From the NCBI GenBank assembly GCA_963737265.1, contig CAVTRY010000012.1, positions 96,001-160,000 on the forward strand: 64,000 nt of DNA, in the 5' to 3' direction. Every line of letters starts with the position of its first letter. Positions within the stretch are counted from its first letter, which is position 1. Positions 20,592 through 57,020 of this stretch are shown here, one piece after another. The notes under the pieces are model-generated. The model had not been told where the DNA came from, did not search any database, and worked only from the letters and a program-made list of their open reading frames with translations. This DNA is from an uncultured delta proteobacterium (GTDB lineage: Bacteria > Myxococcota_A > Polyangia > Fen-1088). Position numbers and translations under genes: made by a program.

Positions 20592-21746
20592 TCAAAGTGG
20601 AGTGGGCGACTGATACAACTGAAGGATCTCGTCCGCCCCGAGGGCGCGCGTCCAGATTGCGACCTCGTCGATCTCGCCGGCGAACTCCTGGGCGGGTCCG
20701 GCGAGAGGTAGGCAGCCGAGGTAGAGTGGTGACGGGGATAGCGGGACCAATTCGGCGGATTCGCTAAACTCGCCATCCACGGCGCCGTCGACATAAAGGC
20801 GGACGCGCTGGCCCGCTGGCAGCCCGCCATCGAAGACCACCGCAACATGGTACCAACGGTTGGTGGCAAAGGTCCGTTGGCCGTGAAAACGATCCGTGCC
20901 GACATCGGCCCATAAGTAAAAGTCCGCGCCGCCATCGGTCCACAGGAACATGCTGTACGAGCTGTCGACCATGTAGTTGGTTCGCTTGGCGATGATCCCG
21001 TTGGAAGCGGGATCGAGAGCGGTGGGGAAGATCCACGCCGCCAATGTAAGCTGTGTCGTGGGACGCAAGCTGGGATCGTCGGGAATCTGGACACAGCCGT
21101 TTCTGTCGTCGAAGGATCCCGCGCGTCCGAAGTAGCCATGCGCCGTTGTGTTGGGCAAGAGGTCGGACGAATCGGTTCCCTTGACCGCCGTTCCGTTGTT
21201 GTACCCACAGCTGTCGATGACTTCGCCGGAAACGCCACTCCAGGAGGCTTCGTCCATGTGCATAACGAGCCCGCATCCAGAAAGGAGTCGACTCTCGGCC
21301 GCGCCGCCTGTGCCGGCACCGCCCGTCCCGCCCCCGCCCGTCGCCGCAATTCCACCGGTCGCCGCGATATCGTCCGGCGCCGCGATTCCGTCCGGCGCCG
21401 CGATTCCGTCCGGCGCCGCGATTCCACCCATCGCCGCGGTCCCGCCCATCGCCGCGGTTCCGCCTGACGCCGCCGTTCCGCCTGACGCCGCGATATCGTC
21501 CGGCGCCGCGATATCGTCCGGCGCCGCGATATCGTCCGGCGCCGCGATTCCGCCGGTGGCTGAAACGCCTCCGGCGCCCGTGGCGCCGTCGTCCGTCCCA
21601 TCTTCTCCGTCGCTACTGCTGATGGCTCCGCCGTTGGCCGACGCGCCACCCATTGCCACCCCTCGGTTGGTACCCGTGCGGGCATTGCAAGCCAGCCCCG
21701 AGGCCAAGAAAAGGGCGGCTAGCAAGACTGTCGAACGGGCCAACAT
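20592..21746 (-). CDS. LamG/concanavalin-like domain lipoprotein with low-complexity linker
   Basis: Lipobox GLAC; LTLAAWIFP, RWYHVAVVFDG, LYVDG, FAGEIDEVAIW. Confidence 0.85.
   Translation of the reverse strand: MLARSTVLLAALFLASGLACNARTGTNRGVAMGGASANGGAISSSDGEDGTDDGATGAGGVSATGGIAAPDDIAAPDDIAAPDDIAASGGTAASGGTAAMGGTAAMGGIAAPDGIAAPDGIAAPDDIAATGGIAATGGGGTGGAGTGGAAESRLLSGCGLVMHMDEASWSGVSGEVIDSCGYNNGTAVKGTDSSDLLPNTTAHGYFGRAGSFDDRNGCVQIPDDPSLRPTTQLTLAAWIFPTALDPASNGIIAKRTNYMVDSSYSMFLWTDGGADFYLWADVGTDRFHGQRTFATNRWYHVAVVFDGGLPAGQRVRLYVDGAVDGEFSESAELVPLSPSPLYLGCLPLAGPAQEFAGEIDEVAIWTRALGADEILQLYQSPTPL
21340..21552 (-). repeat. In-frame 18-bp tandem repeats (PDDIAA / PDGIAA / xGGTAA)
   Basis: Repeated cgccgcgatatcgtccgg-type units in the LamG gene linker. 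Confidence 0.85.
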
Positions 21747-21808
21747 TTAGACGGGCTCAGTCAGCTGCCCATAAAGATAACATCTATTGCCAGGTGGTGA
21801 GGCGATTT

Positions 21809-22387
21809 GGGTGCCTCCCTGAAACGGGGGCCCCAGCCGGGGGCTCGGTGAGGTAGCAACTTCTGGCGGAGTGCCGCCGAAAACGCAGATATGGAACAGC
21901 GAGGAACGGAGAAACAGAGACAGGATGACTTTACTGGGCAAATTATCGCCGCCTGCATCGAAGTCCACCGTCACCTCGGTCCCGGGCTGCTTGAGTCGGC
22001 CTACGAGCACTGCCTGGCGCGCGAGCTAGGCCTGCGTGGATTTCGCACGCAACGTCAGGTCGCGATTCCTCTGCAGTACAAAGGCATTGACCTCGACTGC
22101 GGCTATCGCCTCGACCTCATGGTGGAAGGCCGTTTGGTCGTCGAAGTCAAGGCGGTAGAGCAGTTGCTTCCTGTCCACTTGGCACAGGTCATTACCTATC
22201 TCAAGCTCCTACGACTGCCGGTGGGCCTGCTCGTCAATTTCCACGTCCCCGTACTTCGCGAGGGTCTCCGCCGCCTCGTCAACCCAACCCGTGATCCCTC
22301 TGGTCCTCCGTTCCTCCCTGTTTTTCCCTCCGATCCCACCTGCGCGGGGCGAGGTGAAGCCCCAGCCCCCATTTCAGGGAAGCACCC
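21809..22387 (+). mobile_element. 579-bp TIR element carrying a GxxExxY gene, copy 1
   Basis: TIR GGGTGC(C/T)TCCCTGAAA(C/T)GGGGGC; direct repeat AGGCGATTT at 21800-21808 and 22388-22396; near-identical copy at 54784. Confidence 0.93.
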
Positions 22388-22403
22388 AGGCGATTTCACG
22401 TAG
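21891..22403 (+). CDS. GxxExxY family protein (PD-(D/E)xK-like nuclease fold)
   Basis: IEVHRHLGPGLLESAY signature; YRLDLMVEGRLVVEVKAV; AQVITYLK...GLLVNF. Confidence 0.92.
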   Translation: MEQRGTEKQRQDDFTGQIIAACIEVHRHLGPGLLESAYEHCLARELGLRGFRTQRQVAIPLQYKGIDLDCGYRLDLMVEGRLVVEVKAVEQLLPVHLAQVITYLKLLRLPVGLLVNFHVPVLREGLRRLVNPTRDPSGPPFLPVFPSDPTCAGRGEAPAPISGKHPGDFT

Positions 22404-22416
22404 CGTCTACCACGGT

Positions 22417-23577
22417 TTAGGTGGAATCTTCGTCACCGAGGAACAGCGTCTGGACCTCGCCGAGGAGCGCAAGCACCTCGTCGGCTACGATTTCCAGCCC
22501 ACCGGGTCTGAGCCCGACCCGTTCCCAGGCGTCGGGAGAGATGCGCGATAGGCGCAGCTCGCCGTTCGAGCCGAGATCCAGCGACTGGACCAAGAGATCC
22601 GCCAGGTGAATGACGGCGGTCGCCGGCGTGTGGCCGCGCGGTCCCGCCGAATGGTGGTTGGCCGTGGCATCGCGAAAGAAGGGCGGCAGCGTCCACGACG
22701 CCATGAGGGCGGCGCCAACCGCTGCGTGGTCGCAACCAAATATCGCACGCTCGGCCTCCTCAAGTGGCTTGTCGCCGTCGCGATGCCGTTCGAGCGCAAG
22801 CTGCGACCTCTCAGGTAGCATTTGGTACATGGCCAGACTGCCGATATCGTGCAGCAGTCCCGCCACGAAAAACCGTTCGGCGTTGGGCTCGCGACGCAGA
22901 CGCGCGATGGAGCGCGCGGCGATGCTACAGGCCAGGCTGTGCTTCCAGAACGACTTCATGCTGACGAGCTGCGAGTCGATACCTTTGAAATGGGACAGGA
23001 CCACCGTGGCCAAGACCAGATCGTGAAGCTGGCGCGTGCCGATGATACGAACGGCGTCTTCGATTCCCTCCACCCGGCGTGAAAACCCGTAGAAGGCGCT
23101 GTTGGCAATGCGAAGCAGGCGGGCGCACAATGCTTGGTCGTAGCTCAGGATGGTTCCGATGGCGGCGCTGGAGCTGGCGGGGTGGTTAATGGCCTTGTCG
23201 ACGTGGAAGTAGATGTTGGGCAGCGAAGCCAAGGTGCCCACGCGGGCAACGATGGTTTCCGGATTGATGGGTGGGCCGAGCGGATTGCGCGCTGGCAGTG
23301 CCTTCCCCACGGGCGGGCAAGCGGGCCCACAAGCTGGCGCGGTCTTGCCCGGGTACTTGCTTGGATCGGCCCGGGGCGCGCGCCGTTGCGCCACCGAGAC
23401 CAGCTCGCCGAGCACAGGATTGGCGATATCATTGGTGCCGAAAAACCGCAGGAACTCGCTCGAACGGCGCGTTGGATTGGGGCAGCTCGCCGGCCGCTGG
23501 TGACGGAGCCAGGGATGGTTCCGGCGCGGCGGCTTGAGGAGTCGGCAAAGGCATGAGAATTCCCTGGCTCCGTTCAT
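22417..23577 (-). CDS. HDOD-domain signal transduction protein
   Basis: LASLPNIY, DQALCARLLRIANSAFYG, FWKHS, AGLLHDIG, DHAAVG; N-terminus uncertain. Confidence 0.88.
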   Translation of the reverse strand: MNGAREFSCLCRLLKPPRRNHPWLRHQRPASCPNPTRRSSEFLRFFGTNDIANPVLGELVSVAQRRAPRADPSKYPGKTAPACGPACPPVGKALPARNPLGPPINPETIVARVGTLASLPNIYFHVDKAINHPASSSAAIGTILSYDQALCARLLRIANSAFYGFSRRVEGIEDAVRIIGTRQLHDLVLATVVLSHFKGIDSQLVSMKSFWKHSLACSIAARSIARLRREPNAERFFVAGLLHDIGSLAMYQMLPERSQLALERHRDGDKPLEEAERAIFGCDHAAVGAALMASWTLPPFFRDATANHHSAGPRGHTPATAVIHLADLLVQSLDLGSNGELRLSRISPDAWERVGLRPGGLEIVADEVLALLGEVQTLFLGDEDST

Positions 23578-32007: not shown

Positions 32008-32170
32008 CTAGAGCACCGAACGGGTTGCCGGACCGAGTGAAATTGCGCAGTTGCGAGCGGCCCGAGGCGCGAGGAGGGAAGATACTCGACGTATCTGACC
32101 GACGAGCAACGAAGGGACGCGACGCAAATGAGCGATTTCACGACGGGAGTCAACCCGTTCGGTGCTCTAG
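32008..32170. mobile_element. MITE-like element B
   Basis: Perfect 20-bp inverted repeat CTAGAGCACCGAACGGGTTG at both ends, including the flanking CTAG; core shared with element A. Confidence 0.75.
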
Positions 32171-45629: not shown

Positions 45630-46763
45630 CTACAGCATTCCGGAAAGCAGCACGGCTCCGAGCGTGACCACGCGCTCTCCGGCGGCGATGCCACGAATCA
45701 CGGGTAAGTAGTCGCCGCCCAGCTCTTCATTGACCGAGACCGGCCGACGTTCCAGGCGCAACCTGCCGTCGGACGACTTGCCCAAATCGACAAACACCAT
45801 GGTCTGGTCCCCGAGGTGCAAAATGGCACTGCGGGGAAGGGCGAGCGCCCGCTGCTGCTCAACCGACAGGGCGACGGTGGCGTACATCTCGGGCTTGAGA
45901 TCGCGGTCGTCGTTGGGCAACTTACAGCGAACCTTCGCCGTTCTCGTCGTCGGATCGAGCGTGTCGGAAACCCAATCCGCGCTGCCCTTGAATACGCGAT
46001 TGGGATAGGCCACGACCTTGACCAGGCACTCGGTGCCTTGCTTGACTCGGCCGAGATCCATTTCGAACACGTCCGCCATCACCCACACCGTGTCGAGCTC
46101 GCCCACGGTGAACAGCTCCACCACGCTGCCTCCCGAGTATTGCCCCTGGACTTCGGTGCCGGGATTCACGTTGCGCGCGACCACTTCGCCGGCGATGGGC
46201 GCGCGCAAGGTGTAGCTCTGGCCGCCCAAGCCCGCCTTTCCGTTGCCCAGCAATTGCGCCTTCTTCGTCGCGCGCTCGAGCTCGGCTTTGCTCTTGGAAT
46301 AGTTGCCCTGGGCCGCCTCCAAGTCGCGTTGCGATCCCGCGTGAATATCGAACAGTTCCCTTTGGCGCTTGAAGTCCTTCTCGGCCGCCAGGCGATCGGC
46401 GCTGGCCTTTTGCAGGTCCGAAAACGCGCTGCCCATGTCCGGCGATTCGATCACCGCCAAGCCATCGCCCTTTTCCAGGCGCTGACCGAGCTCGGCCGCG
46501 ATGCGAACGACACGGCCAGTAACGGGAGAAATCACATGCGCCACCTTCAGGTCGTCGAACGTCACCCGCCCGGTCGCCACCACCAAGCCGCCCACCGGCT
46601 GTGGCGCCAGGGGTTCGATGACGAGCTTCGCAGCCGAGACCTGATCCTGCCACAGCCAGATTTCGGACAAGGGCGGCTCAACCGCGCGGCGACCGCTCCG
46701 CGGTTCGCCACGACATGCGCCGAGCAGTACGAGAAAGGCCCCAAGAGTCTTCAACCGACTCAT
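45630..46763 (-). CDS. RND efflux membrane-fusion protein (CzcB-like), second copy
   Basis: SPVTGRV, LRAPIAGEV, LDPTTRT, LKPEMYA. Confidence 0.9.
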   Translation of the reverse strand: MSRLKTLGAFLVLLGACRGEPRSGRRAVEPPLSEIWLWQDQVSAAKLVIEPLAPQPVGGLVVATGRVTFDDLKVAHVISPVTGRVVRIAAELGQRLEKGDGLAVIESPDMGSAFSDLQKASADRLAAEKDFKRQRELFDIHAGSQRDLEAAQGNYSKSKAELERATKKAQLLGNGKAGLGGQSYTLRAPIAGEVVARNVNPGTEVQGQYSGGSVVELFTVGELDTVWVMADVFEMDLGRVKQGTECLVKVVAYPNRVFKGSADWVSDTLDPTTRTAKVRCKLPNDDRDLKPEMYATVALSVEQQRALALPRSAILHLGDQTMVFVDLGKSSDGRLRLERRPVSVNEELGGDYLPVIRGIAAGERVVTLGAVLLSGML

Positions 46764-49887: not shown

Positions 49888-51045
49888 CTAGAGCATCCCG
49901 GACAGCAAGATCGCCCCGGAGATTACCACGCGCTCACCGGCCGAAATGCCGCAAACCACTGGCAGATAGTCCCCGCCCAGTTCTTCGTTGACCGACACCG
50001 GCCGCCGCTCGAAGCGCAGGCGGCCGTCCGCCGCCTTGCCTAGATCGATGAAGGCAATGGTTTGATCGCCCAAGTGCAAGATCGCACTGCGCGGAAGCGC
50101 AAGAGCCCGCTGCTGATCCACCGCCAGCGCGGCAGTCGCATACATCTCGGGCTTTAGCGCGCGGTCGGCGTTGTCGAGCTTGCAGCGAACCTTGGCGGTG
50201 CGCGTGGCTGGATCGAGCGTGTCCGAAACCCAATCCGCCACGCCCTTGAACACGCGGCCCGGATAGGCGACGACCTTGACGAGGCACTCCGTCCCTTGCT
50301 TGACCCGGCCGAGATCCATCTCGAACAAATCGGCCATCACCCACACGGTGTCGAGCTCGCCGACGGTGAACAGCTCGACCACGGTGCCGCCGGTGTACTG
50401 CCCCTGAACCTCGGTGCCGGGATTCACGTTGCGCGCGATGACCTCGCCGCCGATGGCGGCACGCAAGGTGTAGCTCTGGCTCCCGTGATTGGCGCCGCCA
50501 GCGCGCAGCAGCGACGCTTTCTTCTTGGCCCGTTCGAGCTCAGCGCTTGCCTTCGAGTAGTTGCCCTGCGCGGCCTCCAGATCGCGCTGCGATCCCGCGT
50601 GGACGTCGTACAGCTCCTTCTGCCGCCTGAAGTCTTTCTCGGCCGAGGTGAAATCGGCTTGTGCCTTCTCGACGTCCGAAAATGCGCTGCCCATGTCTGG
50701 CGACTCGATGACGGCCAAGGTATCGCCCTTCTTCACCCGCTGTCCCGGCTGGGCCTCGATGCGCACCACGCGGCCGGTGACGGGGCTCATCAGGTGCGCC
50801 ACCTTCAAATCGTCGAAGGTCACCCGCCCGCTCGTAACCACCAGGCCGCCCACCGGCTGAGGAGCCAAGGGCTCCACGACCAACTTCGCAGCCGCAACCT
50901 GATCCTGCCACAACCAGATCTCATTGGCCGGCGGATCCGCAGCATGGCGACTCGGGTTGCTCTCGTCACTTTGGCCGTGACACCCGCATAGCATCGCCGA
51001 GCAAAACACAGGGAACAGCAGCGAAAGAAACATTCGCTGTTTCAT
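49888..51045 (-). CDS. RND efflux membrane-fusion protein (CzcB-like), first copy
   Basis: Lipoprotein signal; same MFP motifs as 45630-46763. Confidence 0.9.
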   Translation of the reverse strand: MKQRMFLSLLFPVFCSAMLCGCHGQSDESNPSRHAADPPANEIWLWQDQVAAAKLVVEPLAPQPVGGLVVTSGRVTFDDLKVAHLMSPVTGRVVRIEAQPGQRVKKGDTLAVIESPDMGSAFSDVEKAQADFTSAEKDFRRQKELYDVHAGSQRDLEAAQGNYSKASAELERAKKKASLLRAGGANHGSQSYTLRAAIGGEVIARNVNPGTEVQGQYTGGTVVELFTVGELDTVWVMADLFEMDLGRVKQGTECLVKVVAYPGRVFKGVADWVSDTLDPATRTAKVRCKLDNADRALKPEMYATAALAVDQQRALALPRSAILHLGDQTIAFIDLGKAADGRLRFERRPVSVNEELGGDYLPVVCGISAGERVVISGAILLSGML

Positions 51046-53512: not shown

Positions 53513-53744
53513 GGGACCAAACGCGAAAACCACGCAAGACGCCACCTCAAAGCTGCCTCGTCTTGCATTTCGCAATGCCGAGCATTGCAAGCGAAGGTGC
53601 GAAGTCGCAAGCAAGGGCGCAAAGGGAGTTGTCCAGTGTCTGGGTGATTAGGGTCACCCGCGTCGACCGAAACGACGATTGAATCGTTTGCGCGCATGGT
53701 GCAATCTAACCATGAGCGAGTAAATGCTCGCCGGGAGGGTTTGC

Positions 53745-54758
53745 ATGTCCCCATGTAGGTGTTTTGCCCGGACGGCTGTCTCAATCGCATTGCTGGGAAT
53801 TGCGTCCGTGGAGTGCAATCCTGGCACGACCGGCCCCGCACTCGGAGGTGCAGGCATTAGCAATCCCGGTGGCGGAACGGCCGGCGGCATAACCATCCCG
53901 GTATCAAGCTCGGGCGGAGCCTCCGCCCAAGGTGGCTCAACCGGCGCAACGGCGCCGACGTGGCCCCCAGCAGGTTACGTCAACGTGACCAGCACCTCGT
54001 ATGGCGCGTATGCACTCGGACCTCTTATCTCCGGCGGCGGCAGCTCCGCACCGGATGCGGACGCCGGGACGTCCTCTGGCCAGTGCGGCGGCCTGTTCGG
54101 CGTGGTTAGGGATTTCAAGATGAGCACCACCCCAGGTGGACACCCTGATTTTCAACACGCCGTTCAAGGCGATGATCGCGGGATCGTCGATGCCACGCTT
54201 GGAAGCGACGGGAAACCCGTCTACGCGCATCCTGGAGGTTCGACGCCCACGACGACGGGGCAATCCTATTTCGACCAATGGTACCGAGACGTGCCTGACG
54301 TGAACATGACCTACGTGGTTGGGTTGCAGTTCGTCCAGAACGGAAACGTCGTTACCTTTGCCGCCTCGATTGACAATAGGGGCGTTCCCGATTCTTCCTA
54401 TTTTCCCCTCGATAACGAGGGATTCGGGAATCAGGGCTATAATCACAACTTCAGCTTCACCACCGAGATTCACACATCGTTCACCTACAACGGCGGCGAG
54501 ATATTTACGTTCCAGGGCGACGACGACGTATTCGTGTTCATCAACAACCAACTGGCCATCGACTTGGGCGGTATCCATGTGCAGGAGAGCCTGTCCGTAA
54601 ATCTCGACAACCAGGCGGCAACGCTCGGGCTGACCAAGGGCAGCGTCTACAACCTCGATGTATTCAATGCGGAGCGCCACACAGTTCAATCCAACTTCCG
54701 CATCGACACGACCCTGGCGTTCACGAACTGCGGTGTCGTGAACGGCACGATCTATTAG
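53745..54758 (+). CDS. Fibro-slime domain (PA14-like) exported protein
   Basis: VRDF...HPDF, FDQWYRD, HNFSFTTE, FQGDDDVFVFIN, IDLGGIH, AERHT. Confidence 0.9.
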   Translation: MSPCRCFARTAVSIALLGIASVECNPGTTGPALGGAGISNPGGGTAGGITIPVSSSGGASAQGGSTGATAPTWPPAGYVNVTSTSYGAYALGPLISGGGSSAPDADAGTSSGQCGGLFGVVRDFKMSTTPGGHPDFQHAVQGDDRGIVDATLGSDGKPVYAHPGGSTPTTTGQSYFDQWYRDVPDVNMTYVVGLQFVQNGNVVTFAASIDNRGVPDSSYFPLDNEGFGNQGYNHNFSFTTEIHTSFTYNGGEIFTFQGDDDVFVFINNQLAIDLGGIHVQESLSVNLDNQAATLGLTKGSVYNLDVFNAERHTVQSNFRIDTTLAFTNCGVVNGTIY

Positions 54759-54783
54759 CCAAGCGCGGCCACCCGATCGAACC

Positions 54784-55362
54784 GGGTGCCTCCCTGAAAC
54801 GGGGGCCCCAGCCGGGGGCTCGGTGAGGTAGCAACTTTCGGCGGAGTGCCGCCGAAAACGCAGATATGGAACAGGGAGGAACGGAGAAACAGAGACAGGA
54901 TGACTTTACTGGGCAAATTATCGCCGCCTGCATCGAAGTCCACCGTCACCTCGGTCCCGGGCTGCTTGAGTCGGCCTACGAGCACTGCCTGGCGCGCGAG
55001 CTAGGCCTGCGTGGATTTCGCACTCAACACCAGGTCGCGATTCCTCTGCAGTACAAAGGACTTGACCTCGACTGCGGCTATCGCCTCGACCTCATGGTGG
55101 AAGGCCGTTTGGTCGTCGAAGTCAAGGCGGTAGAGCAGTTGCTTCCTGTCCACTTGGCACAGGTCATTACCTATCTCAAGCTCCTACGACTGCCGGTGGG
55201 CCTGCTCGTCAATTTCCACGTCCCCGTACTTCGCGAGGGTCTCCGCCGCCTCGTCAACCCAACCCGTGATCCCTCTGGTCCTCCGTTCCTCCCTGTTTTT
55301 CCCTCCGATCCCACCTGCGCGGGGCGAGGTGAAGCCCCAGCCCCCGTTTCAGGGAAGCACCC
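54784..55362 (+). mobile_element. 579-bp TIR element carrying a GxxExxY gene, copy 2
   Basis: 23-bp TIRs with one mismatch; direct repeat GATCGAACC at 54775-54783 and 55363-55371. Confidence 0.93.
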
Positions 55363-55456
55363 GATCGAACCTCTGGGCTTGCGATTTGGGTGCGGATTGT
55401 CCAAGACTGCGCCTGATGTCCCCGCCCAAAACAAGTCGGCTTATGAGTGGCGATGA
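54866..55456 (+). CDS. GxxExxY family protein
   Basis: Near-identical to 21891-22403, different read-through C-terminus. Confidence 0.92.
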   Translation: MEQGGTEKQRQDDFTGQIIAACIEVHRHLGPGLLESAYEHCLARELGLRGFRTQHQVAIPLQYKGLDLDCGYRLDLMVEGRLVVEVKAVEQLLPVHLAQVITYLKLLRLPVGLLVNFHVPVLREGLRRLVNPTRDPSGPPFLPVFPSDPTCAGRGEAPAPVSGKHPIEPLGLRFGCGLSKTAPDVPAQNKSAYEWR

Positions 55457-57020
55457 AGCCGTGGCTCTCGCCGCCCTTCACGCGTCCGTCCAGCTAGGCA
55501 CTGGCTACCCCGGCACACCGTCGACGGAGATCCTGGAACGCTTCGAAGTCCTGGGCGGGCGCGCGCAGTGGGCGCCCAACGAAAAGGTAGCTCTGGAAGT
55601 CGGCATCGGTGTCGCGTTTGCTGGCGGACGATCCATTGTGACCATGAAGCACGTCGGCCTCAACGTGGCCGCCGACCCGCTTTTCACCGTCGCGTACACC
55701 GGCGTGGAAGGCGCGCTGGTCGTGGTGTCGGCCGACGATCCGGGTATGGCATCCAGCCAGAACGAACAGGACAACCGGCGCTTCGCCGTGGCGGCCGGCG
55801 TGCCCATGCTGGAGCCCGCAGACTCGCAGGAAGCCTACGATTTCACGCTGCTTGCCATCGAAATTTCCGAGCGCTGGCGCATTCCGGTGCTCCTGCGCAT
55901 GACCACGCGCGTCTGCCATTCCAAGACCATCGTGGCCACGCCCGGCAATGCGGTACCGCCTGCGCGCGCGCCCGCCTTCGTGCGCAGCGTGCCCGAGCGA
56001 GTAATGATCCCGGCCTACGCGCGCCCAGCCCACCTGCGCCTGCGCACCAAGCTGGCCGAAATCGAGGCGTGGAACGAACACAAGGGCCCAACGGTTCGCG
56101 TTGACGGTGAAGGTAAGCTTGGCATCATCACCTCGGGCATTTCTTACCAGCATGTGCGCGAGGCGGCGCCGGACGCGCGCGTTCTCAAAATCGGCCTCAC
56201 CTACCCCTTGCCGATGGAAGCCATGTGCAAGTTCGCCGAGAGCGTCGAGCGTTGCTTCGTGATCGAGGAAGGCGATCCCTTCCTCGTCGAGGCCGCCCGC
56301 GCGGCGGGAGCCAAAGTGCAGGGCCGGCCCGCCATGTATCGTTGTGGCGAATTGAACGTCAATCGCGTGCGGCGCATCTTGGCCGGCGACCTTTCGCCCG
56401 AAGCCAAGCCCGTACCCGGCAAGCCGCCGGAGCTATGCCCCGGCTGCCCGCACAGAATCGTGTTCGAGATCCTGCGCGACCTCGACTGCATCGTGGCGGG
56501 CGACATCGGCTGCTACACGCTGGGCGTGCTGCCGCCATTTTCAGCTATGGATACCGTGGTGTGCATGGGCGCATCGGTCGGAGTGGGCCTCGGCATGCGC
56601 CACGTCCTGCCTGAAAAGGACGCGCGCCGGGTGGTTAGCGTCATCGGCGATTCCACCTTCGTGCACAGCGGAATCACGGGCTTGGTCGAGATGGTCTACA
56701 ACCCACCCAAGACCGGACACGTACTACTCATCCTCGACAACGGGACCACTGCGATGACGGGTTTGCAGGAACATCCGGGCACGGGACGAACCCTCGGCCA
56801 CCAGCCCACGGGCAAGATTAGCTTCGAGGCGCTCGCGAGCGCTGTAGGCGTCAAGCACGTCACGGTGCTGGACCCCACCTTGCGCCCGGCCGAGCTGCGC
56901 GCCTGCATCGAAGAGGCGCTGGCGCGCCAGGAACTTTCGGTCATCATCACCCGGCGCAACTGCCTGCTGGCGGCTGGTGCCATCAAAAGCTACGAGAAGA
57001 ATCATGAAAAGGGTAATTAG
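55416..57020 (+). CDS. iorA: Indolepyruvate:ferredoxin oxidoreductase alpha subunit
   Basis: GYPGTPSTE, NEKVALE, MKHVGLNVAADP, LCPGCPH, GDIGCY, IGDSTF..SG. Confidence 0.93.
   Translation: MSPPKTSRLMSGDEAVALAALHASVQLGTGYPGTPSTEILERFEVLGGRAQWAPNEKVALEVGIGVAFAGGRSIVTMKHVGLNVAADPLFTVAYTGVEGALVVVSADDPGMASSQNEQDNRRFAVAAGVPMLEPADSQEAYDFTLLAIEISERWRIPVLLRMTTRVCHSKTIVATPGNAVPPARAPAFVRSVPERVMIPAYARPAHLRLRTKLAEIEAWNEHKGPTVRVDGEGKLGIITSGISYQHVREAAPDARVLKIGLTYPLPMEAMCKFAESVERCFVIEEGDPFLVEAARAAGAKVQGRPAMYRCGELNVNRVRRILAGDLSPEAKPVPGKPPELCPGCPHRIVFEILRDLDCIVAGDIGCYTLGVLPPFSAMDTVVCMGASVGVGLGMRHVLPEKDARRVVSVIGDSTFVHSGITGLVEMVYNPPKTGHVLLILDNGTTAMTGLQEHPGTGRTLGHQPTGKISFEALASAVGVKHVTVLDPTLRPAELRACIEEALARQELSVIITRRNCLLAAGAIKSYEKNHEKGN

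Follow-up and report, generated by a model that had tools for sequence, protein, structure and literature searches.

Proteins of the GxxExxY family (PDDEXK_3) are widespread and their function is unknown. The question raised by the locus described here is why a gene of this family should occur twice, in almost the same form and with the same boundaries, within a short distance in a single genome, and by what means it was copied. The DNA that was analysed, 64,000 nucleotides from an uncultured delta proteobacterium (Myxococcota), is called the window below; it corresponds to G000:C12:96001-160000, where G000 is this genome, an assembly of 6.55 Mb in 25 contigs. The original prediction, made from the letters of the window alone, was that the gene lies in a 579-bp element that had inserted at two places independently. 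Our analysis identified the element as a composite, in which the ends of an insertion sequence (IS) of the ISKra4 type enclose a GxxExxY cassette. The best explanation of the data is a non-autonomous carrier of this cassette, derived from an ISKra4 IS and moved in trans, to which we assign a probability of roughly 0.85.

Two insertions in the window and their relatives across the genome

Copy 2 of the element occupies positions 54784-55362 on the plus strand, as delimited by alignment and by blastn against the genome, and is flanked by two perfectly matching 9-bp target-site duplications, GATCGAACC, read directly from the sequence at 54775-54783 and 55363-55371. Copy 1, on the same strand, spans 21800-22396, with its duplication AGGCGATTT at 21800-21808 and 22388-22396 on either side of a body at 21809-22387. 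In a pairwise alignment the bodies differed by 9 substitutions and no indels, and their similarity ended exactly at the terminal inverted repeats (TIRs). The alignment therefore agrees in every respect with the predicted 579-bp body, unlike 9-bp duplications, roughly nine differences and lack of indels. Because the flanks are unrelated and the duplications differ, these are two separate insertions rather than the products of a segmental duplication, as had been proposed. The prediction had named homology beyond the TIRs and misassembly as the outcomes that would overturn it; the alignment showed no such homology, and misassembly is not supported by independent DNA, as described below.

A blastn search of the whole genome with the element returned 44 matching segments. 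These included 31 copies of full length (564-580 bp), spread over 12 of the 25 contigs, four complete copies interrupted by other insertions (with perfect duplications in two of the four) and four copies that were truncated or internally deleted. The expectation of many copies genome-wide was thus correct, with 31 full-length and 8 interrupted or truncated copies. Perfect 9-bp direct repeats, all different from one another, flanked 30 of the 31 full-length copies, and the repeats of the remaining copy matched at 7 of 9 positions. The median pairwise difference between copies was 5 substitutions (maximum 30), which shows that the expansion was recent, and the copy haplotypes were mosaic, indicating some exchange between copies. 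A third copy on the same contig lies at C12:160720, 720 bp past the end of the window. On C17, two copies with different haplotypes stand head to tail with one shared 9-mer between them; the same 9-mer is also found on both outer sides, with TTGACC at offset 17 (offsets being counted outward from the end of the element). The presence of this 9-mer in triplicate around two copies reflects a second hit in the same target. We also assessed whether the 31 copies were genic or intergenic, using a threshold on the G+C content of third codon positions (GC3). A strict threshold, which proved too strict, placed none of them in coding-like frames; with a relaxed threshold about 5 of the 31 may fall in such frames, which were taken from stop to stop and may therefore include non-coding leader.

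Among public data the element was found only in Logan contigs from four soil-metagenome runs of one study, at a depth of about 60 on the element and about 3.5 on the flanks. These contigs break at 54784 and at 55362/55363 into the flanks of other copies or into a 1428-bp IS. Of eight loose-end strings examined, five matched this genome, in other copies or in the 1428-bp IS, and three had no match in it. Since one of the runs is possibly the source of the metagenome-assembled genome (MAG) itself, this agreement counts as weak support.

The outer ends of the element are shared with ISKra4-type ISs

A repeat finder detected two nested inverted repeats in the element, an outer one of 23-24 nt at its extreme ends and an inner one of 25 nt. 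No transposase is encoded inside the element, whose only family matches were to TIGR04256 and PF13366. The left TIR, 23 nt beginning GGGTGCCTCCC..., lies at 54784-54806 and the right TIR at 55340-55362, and a fuzzy search of this genome with the TIR found one other TIR pair only, at C20:66979-69098. This pair bounds a single-copy IS of 2120 bp with a 9-bp duplication, GGAAAGCGG, whose two ends each match the TIR of the element at 19 of 23 positions. Its transposase (466 aa, intact) scored 256.9 bits against the NCBIfam ISKra4 model, which has a cut-off of 205 (E 3.6e-76). A 9-bp duplication is typical of the ISKra4 group (ISfinder).

When metagenome contigs were scanned once with the 23-nt TIR pattern, 11 stretches matched. 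Four of these had two inverted copies of the TIR, 1999-2148 bp apart, enclosing transposase genes 73-75% identical to that of the C20 IS; three of the four genes were uninterrupted (466-475 codons) and one was split. Both of the two transposases tested with the profile hidden Markov model (HMM) passed the ISKra4 cut-off of 205, with 241.7 and 243.8 bits. One end of a full-length metagenomic ISKra4 IS (L174) was 94.5% identical over 55 nt to element positions 526-579, and when the printed ends were read by eye the similarity to the right end of the element stopped after about 49 nt. An end of another (L171), also read by eye, resembled the left end of the element up to about position 46. As the TIRs are common to ISKra4 ISs, these results indicate that the outer ~40 and ~49 nt of the element are IS ends and that its interior takes the place of a transposase gene. 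In copy 2 the left shell arm (element positions 1-40) corresponds to 54784-54823 and the right shell arm (positions 531-579, assigned by the similarity to the L174 end) to 55314-55362, both on the plus strand. Neither positions 1-40 nor positions 537-579 had a match in 40 related genomes. A search of species-representative genomes with the exact TIR gave one solo match, which lacked a second repeat, a transposase and any part of the cassette other than the repeat itself.

The genome also contains a second, more distant ISKra4-like family of 1782 bp, with 10 copies (including G000:C7:274440-276221) and a 576-aa transposase that, at 178 bits, fell short of the ISKra4 cut-off. Of the four copies whose flanks were inspected by eye, three had a 9-bp duplication. 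This family was judged less likely to be the helper of the element on TIR similarity alone, the two TIRs agreeing at 11 of 23 positions by an eye count.

Two side observations concern these structures. One copy of the element, G000:C11:916267-916794, ends at element position 530, exactly at the junction between the cassette and the right IS arm, and may be either a deletion or a relic of the formation of the composite. The C20 IS contains a second ORF (open reading frame) downstream of the transposase gene (L031 2558-2983, 141 aa) that matched nothing in NCBIfam or Pfam; additional genes without a known function are mentioned for some ISKra4 elements in PMC3942029.

The element often inserts at a fixed distance from promoter-like sequences

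Across the 31 full-length copies, TTG started exactly at the 17th base outward in 8 right flanks and 5 left flanks. This amounts to 13 of 62 flanks, against 1.08% for each other offset (binomial P 1.3e-13), and no other offset from 1 to 70 had more than 3 occurrences of TTG. At offset 17, six right flanks matched TTGACA at five or more of its six positions, and in several of these a -10-like hexamer followed 16-18 nt further on. In copy 2 a flank scan placed a -35-like hexamer, TTGCGA, at 55379-55384 on the plus strand, from the 17th base past the right end and upstream of an iorA-like gene. Guerillot et al. (2014; PMC3942029) state that ISKra4-group elements choose sites ahead of sigma-A promoters, with 13-17 bp between the promoter and the junction of repeat and genome, and they accept promoter targeting when it applies to more than 20% of sites. 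Thirteen of the 31 copies of the element have the TTG at offset 17, a fraction above that value. The 1782-bp family also had TTG at offset 17, in 5 of the 20 flanks inspected, which implies that the genome has two promoter-seeking Mutator-like families.

The interior is a GxxExxY cassette with its own inverted arms

Within the shell, the cassette of copy 2 begins with a leader at 54824-54865 (plus strand), which contains a small GC hairpin, GGCGGAGTGCCGCC, 5' of the start codon in the predicted RNA fold and which is common to the copy in a related genome (G005) from element position 41 onward. The ORF of copy 2 runs from 54866 to 55456 on the plus strand and encodes 196 aa, with its stop codon in the flank; that of copy 1 runs from 21891 to 22403 on the plus strand and encodes 170 aa (both from the ORF list). 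The start codon of the ORF begins 4 nt ahead of the left inner arm, and the frame continues through the right inner arm and the right TIR without meeting a stop in the element, so that the tail of the protein depends on the insertion site. The left inner arm (54870-54894) consists of three xACxGAG-type units about 9 nt apart and is translated as the N-terminal tail, whereas the right inner arm (55273-55297) is translated within the C-terminal tail. The two arms, both given on the plus strand, are 25 nt long and 92% complementary, and they pair with each other in the RNA fold; as RNA, the whole element folded far better than shuffled sequences (z = -7.8).

The GxxExxY protein scored 139.3 and 141.9 bits against TIGR04256 (cut-off 35), with E values of 6.8e-41 for copy 2 and about 1e-41, and 138.2 bits against PF13366 (cut-off 22, E 2.1e-40); in copy 2 the PDDEXK_3 domain covers residues 14-129 (nt 54905-55252, plus strand). 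In an alignment with 39 relatives, residues E35, E85 and K87 were invariant and D75 was at least 90% conserved. The AlphaFold2 model of the protein had an alpha/beta core and a mean predicted local distance difference test score (pLDDT) of 93.5. The best Foldseek matches were to Cas4, the Hjc resolvase and lambda exonuclease, all of them weak and none at E <=0.001, and a sequence search of solved structures gave no match at E up to 1. By its core residues and modelled fold, the cargo is predicted to be a nuclease of the PD-(D/E)XK type.

Ten of the 40 related genomes matched the element, in each case in its inner part only, the best of these matches covering positions 41-514 in G005 (91%) and positions 80-523 and 44-521 in G009. 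We collected 80 GxxExxY loci from many phyla, of which 79 had enough flanking sequence (one at a contig end was dropped), and counted a bracketing repeat when it scored more than 6 units above the best of 20 shuffles. An inverted repeat bracketed the ORF in 55 of the 79. The arms of the 20 pairs that were inspected held two or three units of a CACAGAG- or CGCAGAG-like word about 9 nt apart, and the inner arms of the element are of this same periodic type. The outer TIR with a 9-bp duplication was found at none of the 80 other loci, in a search that recovered its positive control. GxxExxY / PDDEXK_3 is listed as 'Unknown ... multiple transfers' in the available text of PMC3424549, and neither that text nor the available text of PMC8934634 describes a mode of movement for GxxExxY genes or a composite of this kind.

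Other forms of the cassette were seen in this genome and in its genus. A solitary GxxExxY paralog of 156 aa with 60% protein identity lies at L169 221-691 (G000:C22:198320-198790), where it takes up the space that separates a comM-like gene from recA (genes named by reading their translations). Its arms are purine-rich, about 44 nt long and translated as its N- and C-terminal tails, and it has no outer TIR and no obvious duplication. Two genomes of the same genus (G003 and G004; L042-L065) contain many repeats of about 300-330 bp that are cassettes with most of the ORF deleted, element positions 80-180 being joined to positions 455-536 (that is, the arms with about 100 and 80 nt). These derivatives sit inside different terminal repeats, GGGAACCCTG..., and their target duplications could not be defined. 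The different end repeats show that more than one kind of shell has come to enclose the cassette, or what is left of it, in this genus.

The ORF is maintained along lineages and broken in many copies

The state of the ORF was compared across the 31 full-length copies, with that of C17:62941 and C21:116013 deduced from variant tables. The ORF was intact from the ATG to residue 130 in 13 copies. It was broken inside the domain in another 13, through a frameshift, the loss of 4 or 12 nt or a premature stop codon. The remaining 5 were borderline: two had CTG in place of ATG, two lost the frame after residue 128 and one had a compensated double frameshift. One 1-nt deletion causing a frameshift was common to 8 copies at 8 loci, which suggests that broken copies were still being copied.

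Among the copies, codons 1-130 contained 13 synonymous and 22 non-synonymous variant sites, over 98.7 synonymous and 291.3 non-synonymous sites, a ratio of about 0.57. Between lineages the ratio of non-synonymous to synonymous change (dN/dS) in the core (codons 14-130) was 0.26 against G005, 0.12 against G009 and 0.15 against a divergent subfamily in this genome. The low values between lineages, taken together with the broken copies, suggest that the ORF is maintained along lineages and decays after insertion. Judged from these sequence comparisons, the protein would be kept functional along lineages and lost from individual insertions, as expected for a transposon gene.

Proposed mechanism and alternative explanations

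The outer layer of the element consists of ISKra4-family (Mutator-like DDE) ends, with a left part of about 40 nt and a right part of about 49 nt that include the 23-nt TIRs. The ~490-bp GxxExxY cassette, with periodic inverted arms of 25 nt, stands in place of the transposase gene expected between such ends. We propose that an ISKra4-group transposase acting in trans binds the outer TIRs and inserts the unit through a 9-bp staggered cut, in about four of every ten copies at a site 16 bp upstream of a -35-like TTG. The transposase may be supplied by the 2120-bp IS at G000:C20:66979-69098 or by a more closely related master element that has been lost or was left unassembled; the intact 466-aa C20 gene is the sole fact in favour of trans mobilisation by a cognate transposase. 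The nuclease would travel as cargo, kept functional along element lineages and not needed in cis for movement. That the ORF is dispensable in cis follows from the 13 copies in which the domain is broken and from the frameshift common to 8 copies. The element may still be moving.

Several observations weigh against this explanation. The assembly contains no IS with the exact TIR (both ends of the resident C20 IS have 4 mismatches in 23 positions), and the two metagenomic ISs for which both flanks are visible (L171 and L176) have no 9-bp duplication. The 1782-bp family is itself a possible helper, as its insertions produce 9-bp duplications and TTG stands at offset 17 in several of its flanks. 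As to the target, 13 of the 31 copies only have the TTG, copy 1 is without the motif and the TTGCGA hexamer of copy 2 is without a good -10. The shared frameshift could have been spread by gene conversion between mosaic copies rather than by transposition of a broken copy, and the purifying selection on the ORF is also compatible with a protein that helps the element. Evidence of empty sites or of excision was also lacking. No contig in the four metagenome runs joined the flanks across the element, although contigs cannot show rare alleles, and in 12 other genomes of the genus no orthologous site could be defined for copy 2. All 12 matched the 2.4-kb copy 2 region in the iorA-like gene beside the element, from about its start codon and at 72-79% identity, while the fibro-slime gene on the other side matched elsewhere in the genus genomes. 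The same 12 genomes gave no empty site for copy 1; 5 of them matched the HDIG gene next to it, with the similarity starting near the stop codon of that gene, about 40 bases past the right end of the element, and in one (G008) a weak 44-nt match near copy 1 had a spacing inconsistent with a clean 588-bp difference. Finally, the genome is a MAG with an estimated contamination of 7.6%.

This contamination, together with the exchange between copies implied by their mosaic haplotypes, is what could be said for segmental duplication, gene conversion of a fixed repeat or misassembly as the origin of the copies. However, such an origin is hardly credible given 31 unrelated sets of flanks, 30 perfect and different 9-bp duplications, homology that ends at the TIRs, and contigs from public runs (one of them possibly the MAG source) that connect the ends of the element with several of those flanks. 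It is also very improbable that the copies spread by an arm-based mechanism of the cassette itself, akin to that of repetitive extragenic palindromic (REP) sequences and their REP-associated tyrosine transposases (RAYTs), with the outer repeats being incidental. Periodic arms do bracket 55 of the 79 GxxExxY loci from many phyla, and arm-only fragments and ORF-deleted derivatives occur in sister genomes, but identity reaches the outer TIRs in all 31 copies and the duplications abut these TIRs, not the arms. Moreover, outside the element family this genome has only one such arm and six generic periodic arms.

A further alternative makes the element autonomous or semi-autonomous: its GxxExxY protein would cut the ends or aid a DDE transposase, and intact copies would supply it in trans to the broken ones. 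There is a precedent in TnsA, a PD-(D/E)XK protein of Tn7 that aids a DDE transposase, and the core dN/dS of 0.12-0.26, the fully intact ORF of 13 copies, the invariant catalytic-type residues E35, E85 and K87 with the nearly invariant D75, and the nuclease-like predicted fold would all be accounted for. Autonomy is nevertheless distinctly unlikely: a duplication of 9 bp, TIRs in common with ISKra4 ISs and a promoter-proximal target all belong to the traits of the DDE transposase family, the absence of such TIRs and duplications from all 80 other GxxExxY loci means that the GxxExxY family makes no such footprints alone, and the domain is broken in 13 of the 31 copies. We also considered, tentatively, that the cassette is a selfish element that invaded an ISKra4 IS, displaced its transposase and went on to out-multiply the host IS, with the nuclease acting on element DNA (for example in second-strand cutting or in processing hairpins at the arms or ends) and thereby promoting the transposition or the retention of nuclease-encoding copies. 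This seems rather unlikely; if true, a nuclease that aids its own copies would explain the purifying selection on the lineages that found new copies.

Comparison with known mobile elements

The element resembles ISKra4-group ISs (p-MULT 4, prokaryotic Mutator-like DDE) in its TIRs, which start with GGG and are shared with full-length ISs, in its 9-bp duplication and in its insertion upstream of a -35-like box, from which it is separated by a short and constant spacing. It differs from them in having no transposase and a foreign nuclease cassette as its interior, and in being present in at least 31 copies against a single resident IS with related ends. The term 'MITE' (miniature inverted-repeat transposable element) is absent from the main text of PMC3942029.

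Mobile insertion cassettes (MICs) are bounded by TIRs, lack a transposase and carry passenger genes, an example being the IS231-derived MIC231 of Bacillus cereus. The element shares with them the combination of IS ends and a passenger ORF, a presumed mobilisation in trans and a duplication of the length made by the parent family. In contrast to MICs, its parent is of the ISKra4 type, its passenger is a repeat-armed cassette that occurs across phyla and its copy number is high, as in MITEs. Because it carries a gene, the element is nearer to a MIC than to a plain MITE.

Systems of REP sequences or REP doublets forming hairpins (REPINs) with a RAYT are similar in that short inverted-repeat DNA is tied to one small gene of nuclease type, and in that some genomes hold more repeats than genes. 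However, the protein of the element is not an HUH/Y1 transposase, matching PF13366 and TIGR04256 only, and its copies have TIRs and 9-bp duplications, which to our knowledge REPINs lack. A REP/RAYT identity was accordingly rejected for the element, whose protein is not a RAYT (the rest of the genome was not searched for RAYTs). The intervening sequences of 23S rRNA, which carry the S23p ORF, are likewise comparable, since there too flanking inverted repeats pair into a long stem whose loop contains an ORF. The element differs in its protein family, in having no Rfam match and in not lying in an rRNA gene, and this candidate was ruled out since both window copies lie between protein-coding genes.

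The genome thus offers a natural experiment on an uncharacterised nuclease cassette, which has been copied more than 30 times between ISKra4 ends to give a set of dated copies, intact or knocked out, at known sites. The set implies that the cassette can travel as the cargo of a DDE transposon, and that the nuclease is not needed in cis yet is still under selection between lineages. It also provides a clean, high-copy case of ISKra4 promoter-proximal targeting in an uncultured member of the Myxococcota, including a double hit in one 9-bp target.

Surroundings of the two copies and other repeats

Copy 2 has a gene with a fibro-slime domain (53724-54758) on one side and an indolepyruvate oxidoreductase alpha gene (~55440-57020) on the other. 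The neighbours of copy 1, both on the minus strand, are a weakly TafC-like gene (20592-21746) and an HDIG gene (22417-23577). The description of the copies as intergenic and next to genes for exported proteins was therefore roughly right for the two in the window. The proximity to exported-protein genes itself looks incidental, since the TTG at a fixed offset is the consistent target feature, copy 1 being without this motif. No consensus promoter or terminator was found at copy 2, and a search of Rfam gave two matches there, both far below their gathering scores, with no rRNA family reaching its cut-off.

Other mobile DNA has inserted into the element. The 1428-bp IS, with ends CATAGGCATTAACCCAA, interrupts two element copies, at G000:C20:14672-16099 and C23:162589-164016, and duplicated 11 bp each time. 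It has 10 copies by blastn, and its 30-letter end string occurs at 11 places. Its presence inside element copies indicates that transposition in this genome continued after the element had spread. A further element copy is interrupted by a 187-bp insert with ends AGGGCC...GGCCCT (G000:C13:548132-548318), which duplicated 12 bp and is probably another miniature element.

Three further repeats were noted in the window. A MITE-like repeat at 32008-32170, with 48-nt inverted arms (79% complementary) around 67 nt, had 16 further partial or full blastn matches on 12 contigs of the genome. Beside copy 1, the weakly TafC-like gene on the minus strand contains twelve tandem 18-nt units (21298-21590), which encode a repetitive stretch rich in Ala, Gly, Asp and Ile. 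The segments at 45630-46544 and 49888-50802 are about 75% identical and 4258 bp apart, which suggests an old tandem gene duplication.

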